Assembly: GCA_963695545.1 (NCBI GenBank)
Contig: OY968796.1
Coordinates: forward strand, 1,952,001-2,016,000
DNA: 64,000 nt
Reading direction: 5' to 3'
Origin: Terriglobia bacterium
GTDB taxonomy: Bacteria > Acidobacteriota > Terriglobia > Acidiferrales > UBA7541
Both the position numbers and the translations under genes were made by a program. Positions 3,209 to 59,170 of the stretch are shown piece by piece. The notes beneath the pieces were generated by a model. That model did no database searches. It was not told the DNA's origin and worked only from the letters and a program-made list of their open reading frames with translations. How positions within the stretch are numbered: position 1 is the stretch's first letter; each line of letters opens with the position of its first letter.

Positions 3209-4441
3209 CTACTCGGGTTCCTCGAGCATGGATTCATCGCGGATCACCACGACCACGCCGCTTTCGGTGACGTGATATTTCTTGCGGTCTTCTTCGGCGT
3301 CGTAGCCGATCACGGTGCGCTCGGGGAGATTCACGTGGCGATCCACGATGGCGTTGCGGATTTTCGAGTGCCGTCCGATATTCACGTGATTGAAGACGAT
3401 CGAGTTTTCAACTTCGCTGTAACTATTGATGCGCACGTCGTACCCAAGCACCGATCCCTTCACGCGCCCGCCGGAAATGATGCTGCCCGGGGCAACGATC
3501 GAGTCCAGAGCCACGCCCATGCGCTCCGGATCGGCGAACACGAATTTCACGGGCGGATATTGCTGCTGCCAGGTGCGCAGCGGCCAGCTTTTGTCGTACA
3601 AATTGAACACCGGCGAGACGCTGATCAAATCCATGTTCGCCGCGTAATAGGCGTCGAGCGTGCCAACGTCGCGCCAGTAATGCTCGTGCGGCTTGTTCTC
3701 GTCCTCGAAATTGTAGGCGTACACGCGATACTTCGAGAGGATGCGCGGCAGAATATCCTTGCCGAAATCGTGCGTGGAGCCGGGCTGTTCGGCGTCGGCG
3801 ATCAGCGTGGGCAGCAGGAATTGCGTGTTGAAAATGTAGATGCCCATCGACGCGTTCACTTTCGCGGGATTGTGCCGCGAACGCTTGGGCTGCGCGGGCT
3901 TTTCCTGGAAGCCGACCACGCGCCAGTGCGCGTCGGTCTCGATCACGCCGAAGCGGCCGGCCGCTTCTTCCGGATCGATTTCAAACGTGCCCACCGTGCA
4001 ATCGGCGCCGGCGTCGACGTGCTGCTGAAGCATTTTTCCGTAGTTCATTTTGTAAATGTGATCGCCGGAAAGCACGATGATGTAAGTGGAGCGATCGCTG
4101 CCGATGGAATAAATATTCTGATAGATCGCGTCAGCCGTTCCCAAATACCAATTCGCGGAGACGCGCATCTGCGGCGTGAGGATCTCGATGAAATCGCCGA
4201 GGCCCACGATGCCGGTCCATCCGCGGCGGATATGGCGATTCAGACTGAGCGCTTTATATTGGGTGAGAACGTAAACGCGGCGCAGATCGCTGTTGATGCA
4301 GTTGGAAAGCGTGATGTCGACGATGCGATAAATTCCGCCGAAGGGCACGGCGGGCTTGGCGCGGTCGCGCGTCAATGGCCATAGCCGCTCGCCCTGGCCG
4401 CCGGCCAGGATGATCCCAATGGCGTCACGCATCAGCGACAT
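3209..4441 (-). CDS. glgC: Glucose-1-phosphate adenylyltransferase
   Basis: ILAGGQGERLWPLTRDRAKPAVPFGG, GTADAI, DFGKDI, YWRDVGT. Confidence 0.97.
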   Translation of the reverse strand: MSLMRDAIGIILAGGQGERLWPLTRDRAKPAVPFGGIYRIVDITLSNCINSDLRRVYVLTQYKALSLNRHIRRGWTGIVGLGDFIEILTPQMRVSANWYLGTADAIYQNIYSIGSDRSTYIIVLSGDHIYKMNYGKMLQQHVDAGADCTVGTFEIDPEEAAGRFGVIETDAHWRVVGFQEKPAQPKRSRHNPAKVNASMGIYIFNTQFLLPTLIADAEQPGSTHDFGKDILPRILSKYRVYAYNFEDENKPHEHYWRDVGTLDAYYAANMDLISVSPVFNLYDKSWPLRTWQQQYPPVKFVFADPERMGVALDSIVAPGSIISGGRVKGSVLGYDVRINSYSEVENSIVFNHVNIGRHSKIRNAIVDRHVNLPERTVIGYDAEEDRKKYHVTESGVVVVIRDESMLEEPE

Positions 4442-6270: not shown

Positions 6271-8424
6271 CTAATTCGCGCCGGTGTCTCCGGCCAGGCC
6301 GCGATCCTCGAGCATCGGCTGAATGCTCGGCTTCGCGCCCAGCCACTTCTCGTAAATTGTTTCAAGGTCCGCGGTGTTGCCTCGCGAAAGCACCATGCTG
6401 CGGAAACGATCGCCGTTGGCGCGCGTCAAGCCGCCGTTATCCTCGAACCATTTGTAAGCGTTATCGTCCAGCATCTCGCTCCACAGATACGCGTAGTAAC
6501 CCGCATCGTACCCCTCGGCCCAAATGTGCAGAAAATAGCTCGAGCGATAACGCGGCGGCACCGTGGCGATTGCTAGATGCGTGTTCTCCAGTGCCTGTTT
6601 TTCAAACGCGTCTGGATCTTCCAGAGGCGCGCTGGCGGGCAGCGTATGCCACTGCATATCAAGTTCCGCCGCGGCCAGCAATTCCGTCAGCATATATCCC
6701 TGATTGAAAGTTTTCGATTTCTTGATCTTGGCCACCAGTTCCGGTGGCATCGGCGCGCCTGTCTGATAATGCGTCGCATAGTGACTGAATACAGCCGGAT
6801 CGCTCGCCCAGTGCTCGTTAAATTGTGAAGGGAATTCGACGAAGTCGCGCGGCACATTCGTGCCAGCGAGGCTGGGGTATTCCGTGTCGCCGAACATGCC
6901 ATGCAACGCGTGGCCGAACTCGTGGAACATGGTGGTCACGTCGTCGAAGCTGACGAGAGCGGGCTGGCCGGCGACGGGCTTGCTGAAATTAGCGACGTTG
7001 TAGATCACCGGCAGCATCCCCAACAGCTTCGACGGGCTGACGAAGAAATCCATCCACGCGCCGCCGTTTTTGTTGTCGCGCCGGAAATAATCGCAATACC
7101 ACAGCGCCAGCGGCTTGCCGTCCGCGTCGGTAATCTCAAACACGCGCACGTCCGGGTCGTAGACCGGGATGTCGTGCCTTTCTTTGAACGTCAAGCCGTA
7201 TAGTTGATACGCCGCGTAGAACACGCCGTTCTGCAGCACGTTGTTCAACTCGAAGTAGGGTTTCACCTGCGCGTCGTCCAAATCGTATTTCGCCTTGCGC
7301 ACTTGCTCGGAATAAAAATTCCAATCCCACGGCTGCAATTGGAAGCCGCCGCCCTGCGTATCGATCAGCGCTTGAATTTCCTTGGCTTCGCTGGCCGCGT
7401 TGGCCGTGGAGGCCGGCACCAGCGCATCCATGAACTTCAGCACCGCGTCCGGCGTCTTGGCCATTTGATCCTGCAGATCCCACGCCGCGAAGTTCGGAAA
7501 CCCGAGCAGTTGCGCTTTCTGGGCGCGAAGCTGGGCCAGCCTCGCGATCGTCGAGCGCGTGTCGTTCGCGTCGCCGTGCTCCGTGCGATTCCATGAATCT
7601 TCAAAAAGCTTTTGCCGCGTGTCGCGATCGCCCAGAAAAGTCAGATCCGGCTGCTGCGTGGTATTTTGCAGCGAAATCAGATAGCCGGTTTGCTTATGGT
7701 CCGTCGCGGCTTGCGCCGCGGCCGCGATCTGCGCGTCGCTCAATCCCGCCAGAGCGCTCTTGTCGCTGGTCTCAAACGCCGCCGCGCCGGTTGCCGCGAG
7801 CAATTTTTCCATGAACGCGTTCGAGAGCGTCGATTCCTCTTCGTCCAGCTTTTCGAGCTTGGCCTTGTCGGCGTCTGAAAGATTTGCCCCGGCCTTCACG
7901 AATTCCAGGTAGTCGAACTCCACCAGGCGCAGCGACTCAGGATCGAGATTGAGCGAAGCGCGCTCGTCGTAGATCGCTTTTACGCGCGCGAATAATTTTG
8001 CGTTCAGAAAGATCGCATCCTGCAGGGCCGCCAGCTTCGGCGCCTCGATATCCTGCACCTTTTGCAGCGCCGGATCCGTGTTCGCGCCGGTGACGCCGTT
8101 GAACACCAGTTGCACGCGATTCAGCAGTTGCCCGGTCTTCTCGAACGCCACAATGGTGTTCTCGAACGTTGGCGCGGCTGGATCGTCCGCAATCGCCTGC
8201 ACCTCCTTCAGTTGCTGCGTCATGCCCGCTTCCATCGCCGGCTGATAATCCGCGTCCTTGATCTTGTCGAATGGCGGCGCGTGAAATGGCAACGCGCTCG
8301 GCGCGTAAAACGGATTCGACGGACCGAAGGCCTCTTGCGCGTTCGCAATGCACGCCACTCCGGCGCCAAGCGCAATCGCACATGCAATCGAAGCAATTCG
8401 CATACCCAGCATCGTGATCTTCAT
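6271..8424 (-). CDS. dcp: Peptidyl-dipeptidase Dcp (M3 metallopeptidase) with signal peptide
   Basis: FHEFGHALH zinc motif, RDFVEFPSQFNEHW, AGYYAYLW; start uncertain (8424, ORF track 8463). Confidence 0.9.
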   Translation of the reverse strand: MKITMLGMRIASIACAIALGAGVACIANAQEAFGPSNPFYAPSALPFHAPPFDKIKDADYQPAMEAGMTQQLKEVQAIADDPAAPTFENTIVAFEKTGQLLNRVQLVFNGVTGANTDPALQKVQDIEAPKLAALQDAIFLNAKLFARVKAIYDERASLNLDPESLRLVEFDYLEFVKAGANLSDADKAKLEKLDEEESTLSNAFMEKLLAATGAAAFETSDKSALAGLSDAQIAAAAQAATDHKQTGYLISLQNTTQQPDLTFLGDRDTRQKLFEDSWNRTEHGDANDTRSTIARLAQLRAQKAQLLGFPNFAAWDLQDQMAKTPDAVLKFMDALVPASTANAASEAKEIQALIDTQGGGFQLQPWDWNFYSEQVRKAKYDLDDAQVKPYFELNNVLQNGVFYAAYQLYGLTFKERHDIPVYDPDVRVFEITDADGKPLALWYCDYFRRDNKNGGAWMDFFVSPSKLLGMLPVIYNVANFSKPVAGQPALVSFDDVTTMFHEFGHALHGMFGDTEYPSLAGTNVPRDFVEFPSQFNEHWASDPAVFSHYATHYQTGAPMPPELVAKIKKSKTFNQGYMLTELLAAAELDMQWHTLPASAPLEDPDAFEKQALENTHLAIATVPPRYRSSYFLHIWAEGYDAGYYAYLWSEMLDDNAYKWFEDNGGLTRANGDRFRSMVLSRGNTADLETIYEKWLGAKPSIQPMLEDRGLAGDTGAN

Positions 8425-49861: not shown

Positions 49862-51082
49862 CTATTTTCGCTGGCTTACGGCTACGGGCACTCCCTGCGT
49901 GTAGTAGTGCACGGCCGCGCCGGCGCCGGCTCCCTGCGAAACGCGGTATCCCTGATCGAGCAACGTTTTTTCGAGCGCGGACAAGAATTGCAGCACGTGT
50001 CCCTTTTGGCTCGAGAAGCCCATCAGGCCGACGCGCCAGAGTTTGCCCTTCAGCGATTTGATGCCGCCGGCGATTTCGATGTTGAACTCATCGAGCAATT
50101 GGCGGCGCACGCGGTGATCTTCCACGCCTTCGGGAACATGAATGCCGGTGACGGTGGTCATGCGCTCGGCCGGATCGGGGACGAACATTTCCAGGCCCAT
50201 CGCTTCGAGACCGGCGATTAGCGCGAGCTGATTTTGGCGATGGCGCTCCCAGTTGGCTTCGAGTCCTTCTTCGAGCACGATGCGCAACGCTTCGCGCAAT
50301 CCGTAGACCAGCGGAATCGCGGGCGTGTGGTGATAGGTGCGCTCTTTGCCCCAATATTCCATGGTGTGCGTGAGATCGAAATACCAGCTGACGGGTTTCG
50401 ATTTGCGCGCGCGGATCACTTCTTCGACGCGCGTGTTCACGGTGATCGGAGACATGCCAGGCGGCGCGCTGATGGCTTTTTGCGAGCCGGAGAAGCAGAT
50501 GTCGATGCGCGTGCCGTCGACGTCGACTGGATGGCCGACGAGAGACGCGACGGTGTCAACGAGGAGCAGCGCGCCCAATTCATCGGCGACTTTGCGGAAT
50601 GGCTCGATCTTGGTGAGCGCGGACGTGGAAGTTTCGCCGTGCACCATGCCGACGAGCTTGATCGGGCGGCCCTTGGCGGCGCGGCGCACGTCTTCGGGAT
50701 CGACCGTGCGGCCGAGCGGTGCTTCGACGCGAATAATCGTCGCGCCGGTGCGCTCGGCGATGATGGCCATGCGCTCGGAGAACGCGCCGTTCACGCAGAT
50801 GATGGCTTGGTCGCCCGGCTCGAGTGGGTTGACCACGGCGGCTTCGATGCCGCCTGAGCCCGAGGCCGAAACGGGAAACGTGACGCGATTTTCGGTCTGG
50901 AACACTTTGCGCAGAAGGGACTGAATGTCGCCCATCATGGCGGTGAACCAGGGGTCCATGTGGCCGACCAGCGGCGCGGACATGGCGCGATAGACGCGCG
51001 GGTCCAGCATGGAAGGGCCCGGGGTCAACAACATACGCGGGGGCGGAAGAAGCTCTCCGATATCATTCCGATCAATGCTCAT
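49862..51082 (-). CDS. Alanine-glyoxylate / serine-pyruvate aminotransferase family (class V PLP enzyme)
   Basis: LLTPGPS, VHGETST, LVDTVASL, SGSQKAISAPPG, YHHTP, WRVGLMG. Confidence 0.92.
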   Translation of the reverse strand: MSIDRNDIGELLPPPRMLLTPGPSMLDPRVYRAMSAPLVGHMDPWFTAMMGDIQSLLRKVFQTENRVTFPVSASGSGGIEAAVVNPLEPGDQAIICVNGAFSERMAIIAERTGATIIRVEAPLGRTVDPEDVRRAAKGRPIKLVGMVHGETSTSALTKIEPFRKVADELGALLLVDTVASLVGHPVDVDGTRIDICFSGSQKAISAPPGMSPITVNTRVEEVIRARKSKPVSWYFDLTHTMEYWGKERTYHHTPAIPLVYGLREALRIVLEEGLEANWERHRQNQLALIAGLEAMGLEMFVPDPAERMTTVTGIHVPEGVEDHRVRRQLLDEFNIEIAGGIKSLKGKLWRVGLMGFSSQKGHVLQFLSALEKTLLDQGYRVSQGAGAGAAVHYYTQGVPVAVSQRK

Positions 51083-51296
51083 TTGGCAGAATCCTCGATG
51101 CCGTGCAGATTTTTGCCCGATCCCAAAACCATGGGAACGGGAAGCGCCGAGCGGGCACGGTTTCTCCAAGCCGAATGGAGCGCCCGGCGGGAAACTATAG
51201 TTTGAAGGATTTGCGAGCTTCGCGCAACCCGCAAGATGGGGAATTATATACATGACTCCCGTAAGGAAACAAGGGACTTTAAGGGCGATTATGGAC

Positions 51297-51325
51297 TTGA
51301 CAAAGTAACGCGAATCTGGTAGCCT
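51297..51325 (+). promoter_or_regulatory. Putative sigma70 promoter of the IS1595 transposase
   Basis: TTGACA(51297-51302)-N17-TAGCCT with a TGn extension. Confidence 0.55.
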
Positions 51326-51343
51326 CTGTGTAGTGAGGCTGCC

Positions 51344-52327
51344 ATGAACCTAATAGACGTTACACGAAAGTTCGCCAGCAAGGAATCCTGCTTAGAGTAT
51401 CTCGCCGCGATGCGCTGGCCGAATGGTATCACGTGCACACACTGTGGCGTTGTGGGCGACGATCAATTCCGCAAGTTCACGACACGCGAGACTGAGCGCA
51501 CTCGATTCAGCGCGAAGAAACAGAAGACGGTCACCGTCCGCGTGCCGTCGCGCAGCCTGTACGAGTGCAAGGGATGCGGCTATCAATTCAGCGCGACCAC
51601 GGGCACGGTGTTCCACGATTCACACTTGCCGCTCGAAAAGTGGTTTATGGCGATTGCCCTGATTCTTGAAGCGAAGAAAGGAATCAGCGCCCTACAGGTC
51701 TGCCGCAACCTCGGAATCCCTGAGAGTAGCTACCGGACGGTCTGGTATCTCTGCCATCGCATCCGTGAAGCCACACAAGAGACCGGCTTACTATCCGGCA
51801 TCGTTGAGACGGACGAGACCTATCTGACGCCTAAGAAGCCCCGCAAGGGCGCTCCCAAGGTCAAGAAAGACAAGCGAGACGTGGTGCTCGGAATGATCGA
51901 ACGCGGCGGTCGGCTGCGAATGGTTCCGATGCGAGACGCGAAGATGTCGATAATCGAGCCGATCATTGCGAAGCACATCGCTCCCGATGCCACGCTGCAA
52001 ACCGACGAACATCCCACATACGCGATAATCGGCAAGCGCCGCTTTCCCGGCAGGCACCGCGCGATCAATCACATGCGCAGTTACGCGGACGGCGACAATA
52101 CGACGAACTCAATTGAGAATGCGTTTTCGTTGCTCAAGCGCGGCGTGTACGGCACGTTCCACAAGGTTTCGATAAAGCATCTTGGCCGGTACTGCAACGA
52201 GTTTTCGTATCGGTTCAACCGACGCGGGAATCAGTCGGAGATGTTCGGCGAGACCGTGAAGGGATTGCTAAAGGGCCAGCCGTTGCCGCTCAAGAAGCTG
52301 ACTGCTTCCGAAACATCGGAGTCTTAG
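51344..52327 (+). CDS. IS1595-family transposase
   Basis: RWP.G..CTHCG...YECKGC..QFS..TGT.FH zinc ribbon, KGISALQ HTH, VETDETY, TDEH, NSIEN, YCNEF.YRFNRR. Confidence 0.96.
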   Translation: MNLIDVTRKFASKESCLEYLAAMRWPNGITCTHCGVVGDDQFRKFTTRETERTRFSAKKQKTVTVRVPSRSLYECKGCGYQFSATTGTVFHDSHLPLEKWFMAIALILEAKKGISALQVCRNLGIPESSYRTVWYLCHRIREATQETGLLSGIVETDETYLTPKKPRKGAPKVKKDKRDVVLGMIERGGRLRMVPMRDAKMSIIEPIIAKHIAPDATLQTDEHPTYAIIGKRRFPGRHRAINHMRSYADGDNTTNSIENAFSLLKRGVYGTFHKVSIKHLGRYCNEFSYRFNRRGNQSEMFGETVKGLLKGQPLPLKKLTASETSES

Positions 52328-52445
52328 GGCCGCGCTTGCCGGAAGTTTTTATATCGCTTTGCGGCTTCGGCTTTGAGCCGAGCAGCGCCGCGAGCACCGC
52401 GTCAAACTTCTTCTTTTCGACCAGCACGCTTTTCTTTGTTTTCAT
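52290..52445 (-). CDS. Small basic protein convergent with and overlapping the transposase 3' end
   Basis: MKTKKSVLVEKKKFDAVLAALLGSKPKP... (51 aa). The longer ORF-track version reads through the nested IS1 junction. Confidence 0.5.
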   Translation of the reverse strand: MKTKKSVLVEKKKFDAVLAALLGSKPKPQSDIKTSGKRGPKTPMFRKQSAS

Positions 52446-52503
52446 GAGTTTTCCACATCCTGAATGGATTTCCACAGCCATGTCGGAAAAATCCGGTAGT
52501 GAC

Positions 52504-52776
52504 TCATTTTGAATTGGGCCTTTGGGACAGGTGGCAGGGAGTCTTGTGGACGCCGGAGACCGGACGTGTGACATAAAACACGGGTTCGACGGCGGAAATC
52601 TGCTTAACCAAGAAGGGGGCCAACTGGAACTGCTTATAGCCCTCCTTCAGGGCATCGTCATACGAAGAAAAGAAGTCCACAATAGTTTCCCCGTGAATAA
52701 GCACGAACTTGCCCTCGTGCGCTTTCAGCTCGGGGAGGTTCTTCCGGTAGGTTTCCAGCTCTTTTTCTAAGGCCAT
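52504..52776 (-). CDS. Small passenger protein (DUF5678-like)
   Basis: LEKELETY...L.AHEGKFVLIHGETIVDFF.SY.DAL..GY..F...PFLVKQI; stop codon lies inside the TIR. Confidence 0.65.
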   Translation of the reverse strand: MALEKELETYRKNLPELKAHEGKFVLIHGETIVDFFSSYDDALKEGYKQFQLAPFLVKQISAVEPVFYVTRPVSGVHKTPCHLSQRPNSK

Positions 52777-52871
52777 CTTGGCACCAGTTGTTGTCACTTT
52801 TATACCTCAGATGCCAGAAGAGATGCGGGGATAGTACAAAACGGTTTCTCTGGGCGCAACACCAATTTGCC

Positions 52872-53720
52872 CTACGCGGCCTTCTCTTTCGACATCTCCA
52901 TTATACGCACCAGCTCCTCAATTGTCCAAACGTGGTCCGAGACTCCCGCTTCCATCGCAGGGGTTACACGTAGTGTTTGATGCACGCGGCAGAAGTTATA
53001 GTGCATAAAGTGGAGTGCCACGGCCCAACGGTGATTGTCTAGCTTCTTAGAGAACGCATTTGTGAGCCGGGTAAAACGGCGCATCTTCATCCGCATAGTT
53101 AGGTTCTGGCGTTCCACGAAGCTGGTAGAAATGTGCTTTGGATTCGGCTGACCTACAATTTTGGTTTGTCTGCACCCGATATAGTCTGCGGGACTATATC
53201 GGACTTCTCCTTGTGCCCGATCTGAGCCGTACATCTTGACGAGCATCGCGTAGTCAATCTCAGTACCGAATGCGAATTCAACCGCCTGCAAATAGGCTTT
53301 GTGACCATCGCTGGTCAACTGCACGCGATTGGCAAGGCGCGAAGCCAAGTCGTACATGAAATGCTGCGCGTGCCAAGCGTTGCGGTCACCGATTCGCCAG
53401 CAGGGAACCAACTTTGTATCCGCGCAAATAGAAACCCAGGTCCACACGTCGCCGAACCCATGCTTGCCGCGCAGATCGTTCGGCACGTTCTTTTCTTTGG
53501 CATAGCAGAAGGACCAGATTTCATCGCACTGGACGCGCTTGCAGGGAAGATTAACCAACACGCGGCGCTGGTATTCTTCGCAAGCTTGGCCAATCGCTGG
53601 CATGAGCTTTAGGACAGTATTAAAAGCCACATCGCACATACGGGCCGTGGCTCGTAGTGAGTTCCCTTCTACGAGTGCCGAGATGATCTGCGCTTGCTTC
53701 TCTTTGTTTAAGCGATTCAT
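52872..53720 (-). CDS. IS1-family transposase (single ORF)
   Basis: LVEGNSLRATAR HTH, VQCDEIWSF, QLTSDG, TSFVERQNLTMRM..RRFTRLTNAFSKK. Confidence 0.93.
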   Translation of the reverse strand: MNRLNKEKQAQIISALVEGNSLRATARMCDVAFNTVLKLMPAIGQACEEYQRRVLVNLPCKRVQCDEIWSFCYAKEKNVPNDLRGKHGFGDVWTWVSICADTKLVPCWRIGDRNAWHAQHFMYDLASRLANRVQLTSDGHKAYLQAVEFAFGTEIDYAMLVKMYGSDRAQGEVRYSPADYIGCRQTKIVGQPNPKHISTSFVERQNLTMRMKMRRFTRLTNAFSKKLDNHRWAVALHFMHYNFCRVHQTLRVTPAMEAGVSDHVWTIEELVRIMEMSKEKAA

Positions 53721-53728
53721 AATGTCTG

Positions 53729-53758
53729 ATTATGCTTGAGCGGCTCAAGGTGTGTCAA
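53729..53758 (-). promoter_or_regulatory. IS1 transposase promoter with a palindrome in the spacer
   Basis: Minus strand TTGACA-N18-CATAAT; spacer holds CTTGAGC-N-GCTCAAG (53735-53749); ATG only 8 nt after the -10. Confidence 0.6.
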
Positions 53759-53924
53759 GAGAAAAACGCAGAATCTTACGAACACTTGGCGCTCACTAAG
53801 TGCTGTACTGTCAATACGATGTGGATACACCTGCGTAATATCCGCAGGGTGCTCTGCAAGTTCGGCGTGCTAGACTAAGTCTTCTCTGCTAGAATCGGCG
53901 TGTCTGATACGGACATGGAGGTTC

Positions 53925-54446
53925 ATGGTCATGGATGATAAACTAAGTGGCGCTGTCGAAGTGCTGGTCGCGCAATTGAACGATCAAATGAAACAAGTGG
54001 CTGACACAAAAAGCACGATCAACGCGCTATTACGAAGTATGGGGAAAGAGGCGATGTTTCAGGATGTAAACGTGGAACAAGCGTCCGCGATTCGTCCAGA
54101 CCAGTTCTACGGAAAGGGTCTCGCAACTGCTGTTCAGGACTATCTCAAACGGCGAAAGCAAGCGTGCGGAGCGGATGAAATTCTCCGGGGACTAGAACAA
54201 GGTGGTTTTGATTTCCGCTCAGTATCATGGAAGGAAGCTGATCGTCGTCGGAGTCTATCAATCTCATTGGCAAAGAACAGCGTCACATTTCATCGGCTTC
54301 CCAACGGGACATTCGGTCTGCTGAGTTGGTACCCTGAGAATATTGGGAAGCAAGAGCCGCCAGCAAACAAAAAGCGCGGGCGGAAAGCGAAGAAGGCCAA
54401 GCCATCGGCTGAGGACGCTACAAAGCCTGAACAGGGGAAACCATGA
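53925..54446 (+). CDS. Passenger protein: coiled coil, putative winged-helix (HARE-HTH-like) domain, basic tail
   Basis: GGAGG RBS; AVQDYL......EILRGLEQGG...SLSISLAKN...FHRLPNGTFGL..W. Confidence 0.65.
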   Translation: MVMDDKLSGAVEVLVAQLNDQMKQVADTKSTINALLRSMGKEAMFQDVNVEQASAIRPDQFYGKGLATAVQDYLKRRKQACGADEILRGLEQGGFDFRSVSWKEADRRRSLSISLAKNSVTFHRLPNGTFGLLSWYPENIGKQEPPANKKRGRKAKKAKPSAEDATKPEQGKP

Positions 54447-54598
54447 CCAGAAGGGATATGTGCCTAGATTGCCGGACGCCGTGCCTACCGAGCAGCCTAG
54501 GCCAAATTAAAGACAAGACCCGCTTCCAGTAACCTTTGCGGGGGAGCTGGAAGCGGGCCGTGGTAGGACGCAAAGATCGCGGCCATGAACCGTCGCGA

Positions 54599-54835
54599 TT
54601 ATACCTTTTTTGTTGACCAACGTGCCTTAGCTGCTTTACGGGCGATGGCCTTTCGCTTACTGGCGGAGAGACGCGCCGCTCGCGCCTTTCCGCCTTTAAG
54701 ACCACCTTTGCGCCCGATCTGGGCGAGATACTCTTTGACGGATGCTGTCTGTCTTGGTTCTTCTGTGGATAGCCGTACGATCTCAGCGGCCAGTTGATTT
54801 GGGTCTTTCGGGAGCGGCTTGCTTGAGCGCCTCAT
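54599..54835 (-). CDS. Small basic KGG-motif (histone-H1-like) passenger protein
   Basis: PKDPNQLA..IV, YLAQIGRKGGLKGGKARA..LS...R..IARKAAKARW. Confidence 0.75.
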   Translation of the reverse strand: MRRSSKPLPKDPNQLAAEIVRLSTEEPRQTASVKEYLAQIGRKGGLKGGKARAARLSASKRKAIARKAAKARWSTKKV

Positions 54836-54967
54836 GCATCACATGATGCACAATTCTTCGGGGCGTTTCAAGCCCCCTAAAAGCTCAAAATGAGTCACTA
54901 CCAAAAATCCGCTTGCAATTTCATTCGTATTCTCTTCGCCTACCCCTGACTGAAACGCAAGCAAGGC

Positions 54968-54997
54968 TTGACAGATTTATCCCGAACAGCGTAGATT
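54968..54997 (+). promoter_or_regulatory. Putative sigma70 promoter of the non-coding cassette
   Basis: TTGACA(54968-54973)-N18-TAGATT(54992-54997). Confidence 0.6.
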
Positions 54998-55004
54998 GCA
55001 CCCT

Positions 55005-55105
55005 AGTAACAGCGACGGCCCACCACCCCAAGGGGTAGTGAGCCGGTTGCTGCTGCCACGCTAGCACGTGGCGGAAGTTCTGGGCGCATGCTACCGAGAA
55101 TTCCG
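55005..55105 (+). ncRNA. Three adjacent hairpins 5' of the tRNA-like genes
   Basis: CAGCGAC-GGC-CAC-ACCCC/GGGGT-GTG-GCC-GTTGCTG; GCCACG/CGTGGC; GGAA-TTCT/AGAA-TTCC. Confidence 0.45.
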
Positions 55106-55147
55106 TTCCTCGTCAACGTGGTTTCCGAATTTATTTTTTGTCGCACG

Positions 55148-55216
55148 GGGGGCGCCAGGTAGGGGACGTCGGTTTCCCACCCATTTCCCCTGGGTTCAAA
55201 TCCCAGCGCCTCCACC
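55148..55216 (+). ncRNA. D-armless tRNA-like / tmRNA-TLD-like mini-RNA with G3:U70
   Basis: Acceptor GGGGGCG/CGCCTCC followed by ACC; T-arm CTGGG-TTCAAAT-CCCAG; one internal hairpin GGT(A)GGGGA/TTCCCACC. Confidence 0.6.
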
Positions 55217-55231
55217 CATGCGACTTTCAAC

Positions 55232-55325
55232 GGCGGGATAGCTTTAACGGTAAAGCCCCGGATTTATAATCCGAGGGTCTCCATGCGTACACATGGAGAT
55301 GTCAGTTCGACCCTGACTCCCGCCG
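55232..55325 (+). tRNA. Atypical long-variable-arm tRNA with TAT (UAU) anticodon and G73
   Basis: Acceptor GGCGGGA/TCCCGCC; D-arm GCTT/AAGC with GG; anticodon arm CCGGA-TTTATAA-TCCGA; 26-nt variable region with TCTCCATG/CATGGAGA stem; T-arm GTCAG-TTCGACC-CTGAC; 3' end G-TCA. Confidence 0.8.
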
Positions 55326-55530
55326 TCAAACTTTTAAGGACACTAGGAGAACGCACCTGATTTCGGATTGGAAACAAAGGTCTGCATCGAGTCTCCCCAA
55401 CCCCGCGTCGCCGGGATTGCCTGACTTGGCTGGTACCAGCCGAGCACCCGGTACCGGCTCTGACTGTATATGGTATCACTATAATTTCGTCAAGGGAAAA
55501 CGATATGTCTCGTATCACACCGAGGTCAAC

Positions 55531-55875
55531 ATGATGAAACGCGTTTTTTTCTCGGCCTTAATCGCAGTTTGCATTGGTCAGGCTCCGCTTCTCGCGCAGG
55601 TGCGGCCTCCGGGTCGGCACCATCGAGACGACTTAGAACAGCGATACAACGATCTCAAATGTGCGCTCGTGATCGTTCAAAATGGGGGCGAATTCGGGAC
55701 AGGAGTTTTCATTGGCTCGGACGGAGATATTGCGACTGCCTCTCACGTCCTGGGCGACCGTACGTTCACATCTCAGGCCGACGGGACGATAACGACAAAC
55801 CTTGCGTTGCCCGCGTCACTCACCGTCATCGACAGCCAAGGAAAATCGACTACGGTGCCGGGAACATTGACCTGA
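55531..55875 (+). pseudogene. Secreted trypsin-like serine protease, 3'-truncated by IS3
   Basis: GAGG RBS, signal peptide, GTGVFI and ATASHV (catalytic His). The frame enters the IS3 end at 55868 and no Asp or Ser motifs remain. Confidence 0.75.
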
Positions 55876-55932
55876 CCGGGGTTTTTTGTACCAGCGGGAG
55901 TGAGAGAGAATTCACTCTGGAGGGAAGCTGGT

Positions 55933-56211
55933 ATGCCGATGAGGAGATACAAGCCGGAGCAGATCGTCACGCTGCTGCGGCAAGTTGAAGTTGAAATCGC
56001 CAACGGAAAGAGCACCCCACAAGCCTGCAAGGAAGCCGAGATCACCGCGCAGACCTACTACCGCTGGCGGAAGGAATACGGCGGCCTGAAGTTGGATCAA
56101 GCGAAACGCCTCAAAGAGTTGGAGCGGGAAAACGCCAAGCTGAAACGGTTGGTGGCGGAGCTTTCGTTGGAGAAGCAAATTCTGAAGGATGTGGCAGAGG
56201 GAAACTTCTAA
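55933..56211 (+). CDS. IS3 transposase OrfA
   Basis: RYKPEQIV..LR, TYYRWRKEYGG, RLKELERENAKLKRLVA; slippery heptamer G-GGA-AAC at 56199-56205. Confidence 0.92.
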   Translation: MPMRRYKPEQIVTLLRQVEVEIANGKSTPQACKEAEITAQTYYRWRKEYGGLKLDQAKRLKELERENAKLKRLVAELSLEKQILKDVAEGNF

Positions 56212-56234
56212 GCCCTGAGCGGCGACGTAGCGCG

Positions 56235-57077
56235 GTGGAGCATGCACGCGAGAGCTACCAAGTATCAGAGCGGCATGCCTGCCGGTTGCTGGGGCAGTGG
56301 AGAGGGACACAACGCTACGAGGTGATCCACCGAACGGATGAAGACGCGCTGACGCGAGACATCGTGGCGCTGGCCAGCGAGTACGGGCGCTTCGGCTATC
56401 GGAGGATCACGGCGCTGTTGCAAGCACGGGGCTGGTATGTGGGCAAGGATCGGGTGCAGCGGATCTGGCGGCGCGAAGGGCTGAAAGTGCCGCAGGGACA
56501 AAGGCCGCGAGGAAGGCTGTGGTTGAACGACGGATCGTGTGTTCGTCTCCGGCCGGAACGAGCCAACCATGTGTGGAGCTACGATTTCGTGAGCGCGATG
56601 ACCCACGACGGCCGAACACTGCGAATGCTGACGCTGATCGACGAATACACGCGGGAGTGCCTGGCGATCCGCGTGGCGAGAAGGCTGGGGAGATACGAAG
56701 TGATCGAAGCGCTGGCGGACGTGATGCTTTACCGGGGAATTCCGGAACATATTCGCTCGGACAACGGCCCGGAGTTCGTGGCCAAGGAGCTGAGGAGTTG
56801 GCTGGCGAAGGTGGGAACGGGGACGCTGTACATCGAACCGGGAAGCCCTTGGGAGAATGGCTACTGCGAAAGCTTCAACGGGAAATTGCGCGATGAATGT
56901 TTGAACGGAGAGATTTTTTACTCGCTGAAGGAAGCGCAGATCGTGATCGAGAAATGGCGGATGGTGTACAACACGCTGCGTCCGCACTCAGCGCTGGGCT
57001 ACAGGCCACCGGCGCCGGTGGCCTGTAGCCCCTTGGTGCCGCCAATTCTCGGTTCGCCGTCGACGGCTGTGATGTAG
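56235..57077 (+). CDS. IS3 transposase OrfB (DDE), probably fused to OrfA by -1 frameshift
   Basis: FGYRRI, VWSYDF, IRSDNGPEF, PGSPWENGYCESFNG, RPHSALGY. Confidence 0.95.
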   Translation: MEHARESYQVSERHACRLLGQWRGTQRYEVIHRTDEDALTRDIVALASEYGRFGYRRITALLQARGWYVGKDRVQRIWRREGLKVPQGQRPRGRLWLNDGSCVRLRPERANHVWSYDFVSAMTHDGRTLRMLTLIDEYTRECLAIRVARRLGRYEVIEALADVMLYRGIPEHIRSDNGPEFVAKELRSWLAKVGTGTLYIEPGSPWENGYCESFNGKLRDECLNGEIFYSLKEAQIVIEKWRMVYNTLRPHSALGYRPPAPVACSPLVPPILGSPSTAVM

Positions 57078-57298
57078 ACTCTCTCATTCACCGTGGTACA
57101 AAAACTCGGGCTGGTCATAAGGACAAGCCTAAATCAAGGGAGTCAACTATATAATTCCCGCAAGATGCGCGCGCGTGACGTGATTCAAAACCAATTTGGT
57201 CGCACGCTGGCGCGACGTGGCTGACGGTCGCCAACCGCGGGCGCGTCCGGTACAATAAATGGCGTGAACCCATCGATAGAAAACGCATAGGAGCTGCC

Positions 57299-59170
57299 AT
57301 GACCGCGACACCGCAAAGCGCCACCCCCACATCGAAAATTTCCGCGCTGGCTGAGAAGGCCCGCATCCTGCGGATCCACTCGCTGCGCATGACCACCGCG
57401 GCGGGATCGGGGCATCCGACGTCGTGTCTTTCGATCGCGGAAATTATGGCGGCGATTTATTTCGACGCGATGAAATTCGATCCGAAAAATCCGTACGCGC
57501 TGGCGGGCGATCGCTTCGTGATGTCCAAGGGCCACGCCGCGCCGATCTTGTACGCCGCGCTGGCGGAAGCGGGCGTGATTCCGGTTTCGCGTTTGATGAC
57601 GCTGCGCACGCTTGACAGCGAACTCGAAGGCCATCCGACGCCGTGGATTCCCGGCGTGGATGCGGCGACGGGCTCGCTGGGACAGGGATTGTCGGTGGGC
57701 GCGGGACTTGCGATCGGCGCGAAACGCCAGGGCTCCGATGCGCACGTTTACGTGGTGATGGGCGACGGCGAAATGGCCGAAGGCAACGTGTGGGAAGCGG
57801 CGGAATTCGCGGCGCACTACGACATCGACAATTTAATTGCGATTGGCGACGTGAACGGGCTCGGCCAAAGCCAGCGCACGATGTATGACCACGACGCCGA
57901 AGTTTATCAGCGGAAATTCGAGTCCGAGGGCTGGACCGCGGGAGTGATCGATGGCCACGATTTGAATGCCGTCCTCGCGGCGCTCGCGCGCGGAAGAGCA
58001 AGCGAAGGCCGGCCGCACGCGATTCTGGCGCGCACGGAAAAGGGCCACGGCGTCAGCTTCCTCGCCGATAAGGACGGCTGGCACGGAAAGCCGCTTTCCG
58101 CCGATCAGCTGGTGAAGGCGCTGGCGGAACTCGAGCCCGTGCCGGCGATTATTCCTGACAACGGCATCTCCTGCGCGCGCAAATCGCTGCCCGTTCCGCC
58201 GGATTTTCCCGCGCCGACCGCGCTCACTTATAAATTGGGGGAATCGATCGCCACGCGTGAGGCTTACGGCACGGCGCTCGCACGGCTGGGCGAAGTGAAC
58301 GAGCAGATCATCGCCATCGACGGTGACGTGAAAAATTCCACGTTCGCCGAAACGTTTCAGAAGAGCTTCTCCGACCGGCTGATTCAAGGATTTATCGCCG
58401 AGCAAAATATGGTGAGCGTGGCCGTGGGTCTTCAGGCGCAGAATCTGGTGCCGTTCGTCGCGACGTTCGCCTGCTTCCTCTCGCGCGCGTTCGATCAGGT
58501 GCGCATGGCGGGAATCAGCCACAGCAATATCAATTTGTGCGGCTCGCACGCGGGGATTTCGATCGGCGAAGACGGGCCCTCGCAGATGGCGCTTGAAGAC
58601 ATCGCGGCATTCCGCGCGATTCCGGGCGCCGCGATTTTGTATCCGTCCGACGCGGTCGCCACGGAGAAGCTGGTCGAGGGCGCGGCGCGCCGGCCGGGAA
58701 TCGCTTACATTCGGACATCGCGGCCGAAGACGGCCGTGATCTACGGGAACGACGAGAAGTTTCCGATTCCCGGGCTCAAGGTCGTGCGGCAGAGCGCGCA
58801 AGATCGCGTCACAGTGATCGGCGCGGGCGTCACGCTGTATGAAGCGCTGAAGGCGGCCGATCAATTGAAGGGCAAGGGCGTTGCCATCCGCGTGATCGAT
58901 CTCTATTGCATCAAGCCGCTCGATACGGCGGCGCTGGTCGAAAATGTGCGCGCCACGGGCGGGCGAGTGGTCACCGTGGAGGATCACTATCCCGAGGGCG
59001 GCCTGGGCGAAGCGGTGCTTGCGGCGCTGGCGGAAGCGGGCGTCGCGGTGCAGGCCGCGCATCTAGCGGTCGATCGCGTGCCGCATTCAGGCAAAGAGGC
59101 CGAGCTGCTCGAAAAATTCGGCATTTCGGCGAGCCACGTGGTCGAAGCCGTCGAGCGTTTGACGAAGTAG
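57299..59170 (+). CDS. tkt: Transketolase
   Basis: GSGHPTS, DRFVMSKGHA, LEGHP, ATGSLGQG, GDGEMAEG, IAEQNM, IGEDGPSQM. Confidence 0.95.
   Translation: MTATPQSATPTSKISALAEKARILRIHSLRMTTAAGSGHPTSCLSIAEIMAAIYFDAMKFDPKNPYALAGDRFVMSKGHAAPILYAALAEAGVIPVSRLMTLRTLDSELEGHPTPWIPGVDAATGSLGQGLSVGAGLAIGAKRQGSDAHVYVVMGDGEMAEGNVWEAAEFAAHYDIDNLIAIGDVNGLGQSQRTMYDHDAEVYQRKFESEGWTAGVIDGHDLNAVLAALARGRASEGRPHAILARTEKGHGVSFLADKDGWHGKPLSADQLVKALAELEPVPAIIPDNGISCARKSLPVPPDFPAPTALTYKLGESIATREAYGTALARLGEVNEQIIAIDGDVKNSTFAETFQKSFSDRLIQGFIAEQNMVSVAVGLQAQNLVPFVATFACFLSRAFDQVRMAGISHSNINLCGSHAGISIGEDGPSQMALEDIAAFRAIPGAAILYPSDAVATEKLVEGAARRPGIAYIRTSRPKTAVIYGNDEKFPIPGLKVVRQSAQDRVTVIGAGVTLYEALKAADQLKGKGVAIRVIDLYCIKPLDTAALVENVRATGGRVVTVEDHYPEGGLGEAVLAALAEAGVAVQAAHLAVDRVPHSGKEAELLEKFGISASHVVEAVERLTK

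Follow-up and report, generated by a model that had tools for sequence, protein, structure and literature searches.

An IS1595-family transposon of a Terriglobia bacterium carries a leader and two tandem tRNA-type units, one of which may read AUA codons of the element's own transposase

Unusual transfer RNAs (tRNAs) called allo-tRNAs are known from Acidobacteria and soil metagenomes (reviewed in PMC7609411). In the main text of Mukai et al. 2017 (PMC5389517), these tRNAs have an 8/4 or 9/3 geometry, UAU is their commonest anticodon, and one allo-tRNA(UAU) pseudogene overlaps a transposon-related open reading frame (ORF). The same paper reports polycistrons of irregular tRNAs near toxin-antitoxin genes, which come from forest and peat soil metatranscriptomes. 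Here we analyze a related locus in a 64,000-nt stretch of a Terriglobia bacterium (the window; contig OY968796.1, positions 1,952,001 to 2,016,000). An IS1595-type transposon spans window positions 51239-57159, and within it lies a cassette at 54911-55500. We read this cassette as a selected, mobile RNA module of the transposon and, with slightly better than even confidence, see its likeliest role in the decoding of AUA for the element's own transposase. The parts of the cassette and the transposase are as follows; loci of related elements, numbered with the prefix L, are named where they share a feature, and the two tRNA-type units are called U1 and U2.

51344-52327, plus strand: IS1595-family transposase of 327 aa with AUA at codons 4, 203, 228 and 277 (Pfam, codon comparison)
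54968-54997, plus strand: cassette promoter TTGACA-N18-TAGATT (promoter scan, 10/12 matches)
55003-55147, plus strand: conserved leader of about 145 nt with three hairpins (nhmmer, alignments, fold)
55148-55216, plus strand: U1, a D-armless tRNA-like unit of 69 nt (ARAGORN, Rfam, fold)
55217-55231, plus strand: conserved spacer ending in TTCAAC, common to the window, L068, L069, L079 and L089 and absent in L071
55232-55325, plus strand: U2, a class II tRNA with anticodon UAU and G73, CCA not encoded (ARAGORN, Rfam, fold, covariation)
55326-55333, plus strand: conserved 3' trailer TCAAAC in the window, L068 and L069; TCAAAT in L079 and L089; located after CCA in L018 and absent in L071
55425-55444 and 55448-55457, plus strand: two palindromes, read in the sequence

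Most of these parts had been seen in the preliminary description of the locus, which named the promoter, three hairpins, the D-armless unit and a UAU cloverleaf 15 nt further on, in about 600 bp without a credible ORF. The tools recovered all of them at the positions listed, and the six mechanical ORFs (41-84 aa) that overlap the cassette region have no Pfam match at E≤0.1. What had been missed is that the AUA codons at four fixed positions of the transposase match the anticodon of U2, and that two nested insertions, an IS1-like element (52495-54902) and an IS3 element (55868-57117), obscure the layout.

U2 resembles the allo-tRNA(UAU) of Mukai et al. 2017, as characterized in the main text (PMC5389517), in its UAU anticodon, G73, long variable arm, tRNA-Sec-like 6-bp D stem with a tetraloop, and carriage on mobile DNA. 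It shows the serine-type features of allo-tRNAs, namely G73, an extended variable arm and a long D stem closed by a tetraloop, as well as the anticodon and transposon carriage of the UAU subgroup. It lacks, however, the defining 12-bp acceptor branch in 8/4 or 9/3 arrangement; the geometry is 7/5, and the U at position 8 faces a C and is unpaired (Infernal, ARAGORN). Substrings of U1, U2 and the first tRNAs of related loci (those tried; 10-17 nt for U1 and U2) have no match in the sequence table of that paper, while the first 17 nt of the tRNA(UAU) of L067 are present in 74 rows of the table and a 9-mer of the L071/L082-type tRNAs has one match, in a row entitled 'tRNA2 (partial)'. The tandem layout is also similar to the irregular-tRNA polycistrons (tRNA0/1/2) presented in the main text: odd tRNAs lie a few nt apart, the last one is long-armed and allo-like, first units have anticodons unfit for their bodies, and such units are seen in RNA libraries. 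The window differs in that the D arm is missing from its first unit, which has G3:U70, in that a conserved promoter and a 145-nt leader stand ahead, and in that the cassette lies between an IS1595 transposase and the element end, whereas the published polycistrons are linked to toxin-antitoxin genes (PMC5389517). The kind is already published, as allo-tRNA(UAU) and irregular-tRNA polycistrons, and the earlier label of an undescribed system was too strong, allo-tRNA(UAU) being the commonest group in Mukai et al. 2017. The main text of that paper covers neither the present architecture nor the leader or the link to the codons, and makes no mention of IS1595, insertion sequence, transposase, codon usage, rare codon or leader. 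Nor was a paper on a link between the tRNA and the transposase codons among those listed on allo-tRNA in Acidobacteria, on allo-tRNA from 2018 and on IS1595 with tRNA and anticodon, a scope outside which bioRxiv supplements and subscription journals lie.

ARAGORN places U2 at 55231-55327 as a cloverleaf with anticodon UAU, and it scores 50.2 bits on the Rfam tRNA model RF00005 (gathering score 29), covering model positions 1-71 of 71. The fold z-score is -6.99. The tetraloop of the D stem is ACGG, the variable stem counts 8-9 bp and the anticodon loop reads UUUAUAA; the gene of L079 is 86% identical and that of L068 82%. BLAST revealed no similarity to any host tRNA beyond short T-arm words. 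CCA is encoded in 47 of the 54 host tRNA calls, and the seven calls without it are U1, U2, a second UAU tRNA, three doubtful calls and one boundary offset. G73 is found in all five host tRNA-Ser genes and in the selC-like gene, and A73 in the host tRNAs for Leu and Tyr; the combination of G73 with a long variable arm therefore makes the features of U2 serine-type. Elsewhere in the genome (C1:2260191-2260283) there is a long-armed tRNA of 93 nt whose acceptor stem counts 8 bp and whose loop is UCA-like; it is probably the host selenocysteine tRNA.

We aligned four U2-type genes to a cloverleaf of 31 pairs. In this alignment, 92.2% of the cells are paired and 14 of the 31 pairs have changed on both sides. 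Such double changes occur in each of the five helices, the variable arm among them. The result is not equaled by any of 500 shuffles, and slid controls pair at 34-46%. Judged from these compensatory changes, the U2 fold is under selection, in line with the covariation that the preliminary description had proposed to look for. The ends of the gene were also considered. The flanks TTCAAC and GTCAAA are kept at four U2-type loci, and when 55229-55235 is set against 55322-55327, pairing of C-1 with G73 and of A-2 with U74 is possible. This gives the U2 precursor a 9-bp acceptor helix, which might shift the cleavage by RNase P.

The transposase belongs to the IS1595 family on the basis of PF12762 (112.5 bits, E 2.3e-32) and PF12760 (39.4 bits, E 6e-10), both above the cut-offs. 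A second IS1595 copy in the same genome (L011), which shares 86.5% DNA identity over 51270-52436, encodes a transposase with ATA at the same codons 4, 203, 228 and 277. The codon comparison was extended to 44 non-duplicate transposases of the clade (L070, L073, L086 and L077 were dropped). Wherever these have isoleucine at residues 4, 203, 228 and 277, its codon is ATA (35/35, 20/20, 25/25 and 29/29, or 109/109 together), against 5 ATA among 359 Ile codons in 14 other Ile-rich columns. At the four AUA positions, the transposases of outgroups that lack the tRNA show different codons or different residues. Host genes use ATA 3.7 times per 1000 codons, which is 7.8% of their Ile codons. Going by these counts, the four-column ATA split cannot arise by synonymous drift, and AUA at these columns is not equivalent to AUC or AUU.

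Relatives of the transposase were collected at 49 loci from genomes and at 80 of 104 loci from metagenomes, the latter being those kept. ARAGORN was run on 46 of the 49 genome loci (the three shortest were left out) and on 80/80 metagenome loci, and the relatives were also scanned with Rfam and with a covariance model built from the U2-type genes. We should note that the counts contain near-duplicate rows (L069=L070, L071=L073, L014~L086, L015~L077). Where transposase identity is 45% or more (47 loci), 33 loci hold a class II tRNA(UAU), and 30 of 34 do so when 700 nt or more lie past the stop codon; at 40% transposase identity or less, none of 66 loci has one. The recurring tRNA cargo that the preliminary description had suggested looking for in homologous elements is therefore there. 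The cassette itself occurs once in the 4.16-Mb genome and in none of 60 relatives searched, including none of five from the same genus. Three short matches to the cassette among the relatives turned out to be the T arms of ordinary tRNA-Pro and tRNA-Ala genes.

These results bear on the view that the units are randomly captured host or phage tRNA genes, decaying and without present function; a decaying phage tRNA fragment was among the findings that, according to the preliminary description, would refute its reading. Several traits look like decay: U1 has lost its D arm, neither unit encodes the CCA that 47 of 54 host tRNA calls encode, the U2-type gene of L089 is internally deleted, and the window element has taken up two insertions. 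U2 is nevertheless perfectly paired, with compensatory changes across all five helices in its relatives, and BLAST shows no host tRNA likeness beyond the T-arm words. The cargo recurs in 33 of 47 related loci, the transposase has its codon pattern, and a scan of viral contigs gave chance matches only. We consider decay very unlikely.

At least four different tRNA bodies serve as tRNA(UAU) in the clade. A serine-tRNA-like body lies on the minus strand, directly upstream of a small ORF; the U2-type body is found in the window, L068, L079 and L069; a GGAGCGG...GGGCA body is found in L071, L076, L098 and L082; and the published 8/4 allo-tRNA body is found in L067, L074, L018 and L139 (missed by ARAGORN in L067 and L074). 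Most of 29 tRNAs(UAU) share the loop YUUAUAA, from which three deviate by a single letter or by an insertion of one, and all but one of the 29 have G at N73. Transposases that are 93-94% identical to that of the window go with other bodies, the serine-tRNA-like one in L011 and the 8/4 allo-tRNA in L067, the latter being the closest full-length transposase relative (94%). The homology of the window to L011 and to L067 ends at one and the same point, 52436. Given this shared breakpoint and the differing bodies, the core and the tRNA-bearing cargo recombine as modules, with a UAU tRNA kept each time. The class II tRNA(UAU) of L011 is encoded on the opposite strand (L011 3270-3361, minus, or C1:344768-344860). 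The L011 element also holds a DUF3800 protein and a 138-aa ORF. On either side of it stands a direct repeat of 16 nt, AGAATCA(A/G)CACTTCTG, a length that exceeds the usual target duplication. In L074, a DUF3800-VII RNA (RF02967) at 3448-3543 on the minus strand scores 48.1 bits (gathering score 36.2) and is located in the cargo with the 8/4 allo-tRNA(UAU). The DUF3800 RNA motifs, as far as the text of PMC5737381 presents them, have no bearing on the window cassette.

The layout of promoter and leader is common to four distinct loci (window, L069=L070, L071=L073 and L089). The first tRNA starts with GGGGGCG in the window, L069 and L089, while L071 has no first tRNA and its tRNA(UAU) comes directly after the leader. 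A tRNA(UAU) follows in three of the four; in L089 the U2-type gene is internally deleted. In L068, an inner inverted repeat lies about 240 nt past the tRNA(UAU), which places the dicistron inside the element. The first unit of L068 (6466-6553), beside the U2-type tRNA(UAU), has a long arm and the anticodon UUA, the one that reads UAA, a stop codon. Short-armed first tRNAs of 73-77 nt with serine anticodons are found in the dicistrons of L069 (6343-6415, CGA), L079 (2827-2903, GGA), L082 (2246-2322, GGA), L089 (1290-1363, GCU) and L018 (8367-8440, ACU). To judge by the anticodons and bodies, a first tRNA with a serine anticodon followed by a second with a serine-type body and an isoleucine anticodon looks like a swap of body and anticodon within the operon.

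More distant IS1595 relatives (32-37% identity) also have tRNAs beside the transposase, namely a tRNA(AGG) of 86 nt, a tRNA(GCU) of 74 nt and a tRNA(UGG) of 83-85 nt. Such loci are L099 (6007-6092), L104/L105 (6086-6159) and L111 (1056-1129), as well as L037, L113, L116 and L118, where the tRNA is located about 170 nt upstream of the transposase. As these relatives hold other tRNAs in this position, tRNA cargo may be a wider habit of the IS1595 family.

The promoter upstream of the leader matches the consensus at 10 of 12 positions, and the cassette region contains three promoter-like sites where shuffles predict 0.5. TTGACA stands 32-34 nt ahead of a conserved CCTAGT in 4/4 homologous leaders. 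The leader, which recurs at the four loci with nhmmer E-values of 1e-40 to 1e-51, has the invariant strings CCTAGT, GCCGGT, CTACCGA, TCCG and GTCAA. It folds as three successive hairpins (~55010-55052, 55053-55074 and 55075-55132) with a z-score of -2.31, which 1 of 200 shuffles equals. A consensus fold of the four sequences (RNAalifold on a MAFFT alignment) has nine pairs, none with a double change, and an anchor-guided alignment of the same four has 16 pairs, none changed on both sides. By eye, hairpin 2 has three pairs in which the window differs on both sides from the remaining three sequences, a set of four being too small to judge. Neither the leader nor the stretch after U2 matches a family in Rfam (E≤1, searched over 50000-58000), and the pattern TAGTRRGCCGGT-N38-50-CTACCGA was absent from all 400 other genomes of the class. 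The three matches of this pattern in viral contigs are due to chance, as no tRNA and no nhmmer match was found there. The leader is a further RNA element that belongs to no known family. Downstream of U2, the stretch 55328-55470 folds like its shuffles (z -0.45). The two palindromes pointed out in the preliminary description are present, yet they are not stable beyond shuffles; a role as terminator or conserved element was rejected, with no T run, no terminator on the plus strand and no conservation in relatives.

One may ask whether these RNAs decode at all. The tRNA-like RNAs could be regulatory or structural instead, acting as processing signals, charging sensors or partners of small proteins or toxin-antitoxin genes. 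This possibility was raised by Mukai et al. for allo-tRNA(UAU), variants of which are inactive in E. coli according to the main text (PMC5389517). It would suit the sequence conservation of the leader and the reduction of U1, which retains just the minihelix recognized by processing enzymes. It would also suit an arrangement seen in the class A loci L012, L013, L015 and L017 (~7100-7220, minus strand), where the ATG of a small ORF follows 2-4 nt after the CCA end of the tRNA, so that cutting at the tRNA 3' end would yield a near-leaderless mRNA. A regulatory role leaves unexplained, however, why the UAU anticodon is retained over at least four body types and why ATA occupies exactly four Ile columns (109/109). 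The leader could have been an antisense regulator of the transposase 5' region, and this was rejected: the duplex energies at three loci are no better than those of shuffles (z -0.34, +1.34 and -0.33), so that pairing is not in excess. The original element is, moreover, without toxin-antitoxin genes. We regard a purely regulatory or structural role as unlikely, though it deserves consideration.

The acceptor stem of U1 is GGGGGCG/CGCCUCC with G3:U70 and A73, the T arm is intact and CCA is not encoded. ARAGORN calls it as a D-armless tRNA only, with a mismatched anticodon stem and a UCC loop, so that it does not form a canonical cloverleaf, and the minimum-energy fold is a three-way junction with an imperfect 32-nt hairpin in the place of the anticodon arm. 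The model built from the U2-type genes (R1) does not find U1 at E≤0.01. On the Rfam model of transfer-messenger RNA (tmRNA; RF00023), U1 aligns to the two ends only, with 17 nt replacing 312 model positions, at 37.6 bits (gathering score 47). U1 is like the host tmRNA in the acceptor stem (GGGGGCG/CGCCUCC, G3:U70, A73), the T arm and the absent D stem, and differs from it in having no tag reading frame and no pseudoknots. The host's true tmRNA is located elsewhere in the genome (ARAGORN). We rejected U1 as a tmRNA or tmRNA fragment: it remains below the gathering score, a host tRNA-Ala scores higher (42.7 bits), and the first tRNAs of relatives carry G3:C70, unlike the G3:U70 of U1. U1 occupies the site of a 74-nt first tRNA in L069 and L089 and agrees with it in the 5' acceptor strand and in the spacer, and the T stems of the three covary (CUGGG/CCCAG, GCCAG/CUGGC and GCCCG/CGGGC). 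The best reading of these comparisons is that U1 descends from the ordinary 74-nt first tRNA of the polycistron family and has lost its D arm and regular anticodon arm. It is most likely a processing unit only, or a relic that keeps, perfectly paired, the acceptor/T minihelix needed for processing; a new role as an alanine acceptor is conceivable.

U1 and U2 lie 15 nt apart behind one promoter. In metatranscriptome run X5, from another study, a single contig of 208 nt is identical to 55091-55298, in an RNA library that may contain DNA. This contig covers the leader end, U1, the spacer and two thirds of U2, and it fits an unprocessed dicistronic precursor. Beyond this stretch run X5 has no contig, and the four DNA runs may stem from the source sample; no argument is built on either. 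The mobile, polycistronic tRNA-like operon that had been proposed in the preliminary description is thus borne out as an IS1595 cassette with its own promoter; its transcription as one RNA has the X5 contig in its favor, with DNA carry-over possible.

Taken as a decoding module, the cassette would work as follows. The sigma-70-type promoter would drive the leader of about 145 nt and then the two tandem tRNA genes. The U2 precursor would be cleaved by RNase P and RNase Z, receive CCA, be charged and decode the AUA codons of the transposase, so that U2 would be the element's own reader of this rare codon. Since the transposase keeps AUA at codons 4, 203, 228 and 277, its production would be tied to the cassette. 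This could happen by two routes. Along the first, U2 would supply a scarce decoder, codon 4 lying in the start region; along the second, U2 would insert the amino acid specified by its own body, which G73 and the long variable arm suggest to be of the serine type.

A stronger form of the second route is a private code, in which the long-armed G73 tRNAs(UAU) would be charged with serine and read the four AUA codons as serine, the enzyme would be active, or attenuated, only when its own tRNA is expressed, and U1 would be an alanine-accepting, tmRNA-like mimic that tunes the system. If true, this would be a natural, mobile and gene-specific reassignment of a sense codon. We consider it improbable. 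The residues that alternate with AUA in the clade give mixed signals: those at residue 203 (S6, T5, A, V, E, M, Y) fit serine, those at residue 228 (F10, E1) fit a hydrophobic residue, and those at residue 277 are K5 and M1.

This disagreement about the amino acid also weighs against AUA decoding by U2 in general, and other points have to be set beside it. AUA can be read without U2, since TilS (180 bits) and three genes for CAU tRNAs are present in the host. Four loci of the clade with at least 700 nt of flank (L087, L089, L093 and L128) have no tRNA(UAU). The RNA evidence consists of the single X5 contig from a library possibly containing DNA. The minimum-energy fold of U1 offers no usable anticodon arm, and selection on U1 cannot be judged from a single sequence of its kind. 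The window copy, interrupted twice by other elements and without the inner right repeat of its relatives, may no longer move. Finally, six allo-tRNA(UAU) assayed as amber suppressors were inactive in E. coli, two were lethal, and Mukai et al. suggest in the main text that most allo-tRNA(UAU) are unused in translation (PMC5389517).

The cassette belongs to a unit that has moved. The boundaries of the transposon and the features within it, apart from the transposase and the cassette, are as follows.

51231-51238, no strand: left copy of the 8-bp target-site duplication GCAAGATG, present as a single copy at the uninterrupted site of congener locus L062
51239-51260, plus strand: left terminal inverted repeat GGGAATTATATACATGACTCCC (inverted pair I3, 22 nt, 91% complementary; insertion boundary relative to the congener)
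51275-51307, plus strand: inner inverted repeat, holding a TTGACA box upstream of the transposase and matching both ends of the second copy L011
52290-52445, minus strand: small conserved ORF of 51 aa, antisense to the transposase 3' end (ORF list; homologue in L011)
52495-54902, minus strand: nested IS1-like element, a later insertion with a 282-aa transposase and three small ORFs (perfect 18-nt inverted ends, pair I4; weak PF03400 match)
55531-55863, plus strand: passenger ORF, interrupted by the IS3 element; its product has a signal peptide and no more than the beginning of a trypsin-like domain (weak PF13365 match, profile positions 1-27)
55868-57117, plus strand: nested IS3-family element (Pfam rve and HTH_Tnp_1; nine genomic copies, eight at 100% and one at 99.9%)
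57138-57159, minus strand: right terminal inverted repeat (pair I3; congener homology resumes at 57157)
57160-57167, no strand: right copy of the 8-bp target-site duplication GCAAGATG (congener comparison)

The 22-nt inverted ends match at 20 of 22 positions, and the same-genus genome G003 (locus L062) is collinear with the window on the left as far as 51237 and on the right from 57157 onward, without any sequence in between, which makes it an empty site. The placement of the cassette within IS1595 inverted repeats, as the preliminary description had it, is thereby confirmed. Target duplications of 8 bp are usual in the IS1595 family, and elements of this family can carry protein passengers. 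Like other IS1595-family insertion sequences, the window element combines a DDE_Tnp_IS1595 domain with a zinc ribbon, inverted ends and an 8-bp target duplication; it differs in that its passenger is a promoter-leader-tRNA module matched to the codons of the transposase. In 14 of 23 relatives checked, the inner repeat forms an inverted pair around the transposase and the tRNAs, whereas no right-hand partner of 51275-51307 was found within the window.

Without its two nested insertions, the element measures about 2.2 kb and the cassette begins about 300 nt from the IS1595 core. The IS1-like element is bordered by an 8-bp direct repeat, AAAAATCC, at 52487-52494 and 54903-54910; its transposase (52872-53720, minus strand) has one ATA codon (codon 273) and there is no tRNA of its own within its ends. 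A DNA contig of run X1, which may be the source sample, joins 55863 to 57124 and thus represents an IS3-free form, in which the passenger ORF reads through the joint to give 113 aa. In this contig the insertion sequence and seven flanking bases are absent, with GGA shared at the joint, and the bases beside the IS3 copy (55864-55867, 57118-57123) show no matching target duplication. The small antisense ORF is without a Pfam match, and its start is visible in L071, L089, L076 and L098. Elsewhere in the genome, a stretch of about 0.7 kb (C1:3843140-3843852) is bracketed by the same 22-nt ends (five and two mismatches) and looks like a non-autonomous relative.

The gene content of the original element also speaks to a role in defense or counter-defense, in which the RNAs would be decoys or spare tRNAs against anticodon nucleases. 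Mobile elements do carry spare tRNAs, and the alanine-type G3:U70 of U1 could be taken in the same sense. The original element has no nuclease or defense gene by Pfam, the PADLOC library not having been searched, and the cargo is linked to one transposase clade and its codons, not to defense islands. The anticodon-nuclease decoy and the antitoxin put forward in the preliminary description found no tool result in their favor, and no toxin gene is present in the original 2.2-kb element. We hold a defensive function to be scarcely plausible.

Allo-tRNA(UAU) was the most abundant of the odd soil tRNA groups in the 2017 study, and the later papers listed are mostly about engineering. The locus described here, together with its relatives, offers a concrete and testable answer as to the role of this group: the tRNA travels with one transposase clade, UAU, G73 and the long arm are kept despite repeated replacement of the body, and the transposase has AUA at four positions and hardly anywhere else. 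If a mobile element brings along the tRNA for those codons on which its own enzyme depends, this would be a new mode of transposon self-regulation, and if the tRNA inserts serine, it would be a case of natural, gene-specific recoding.

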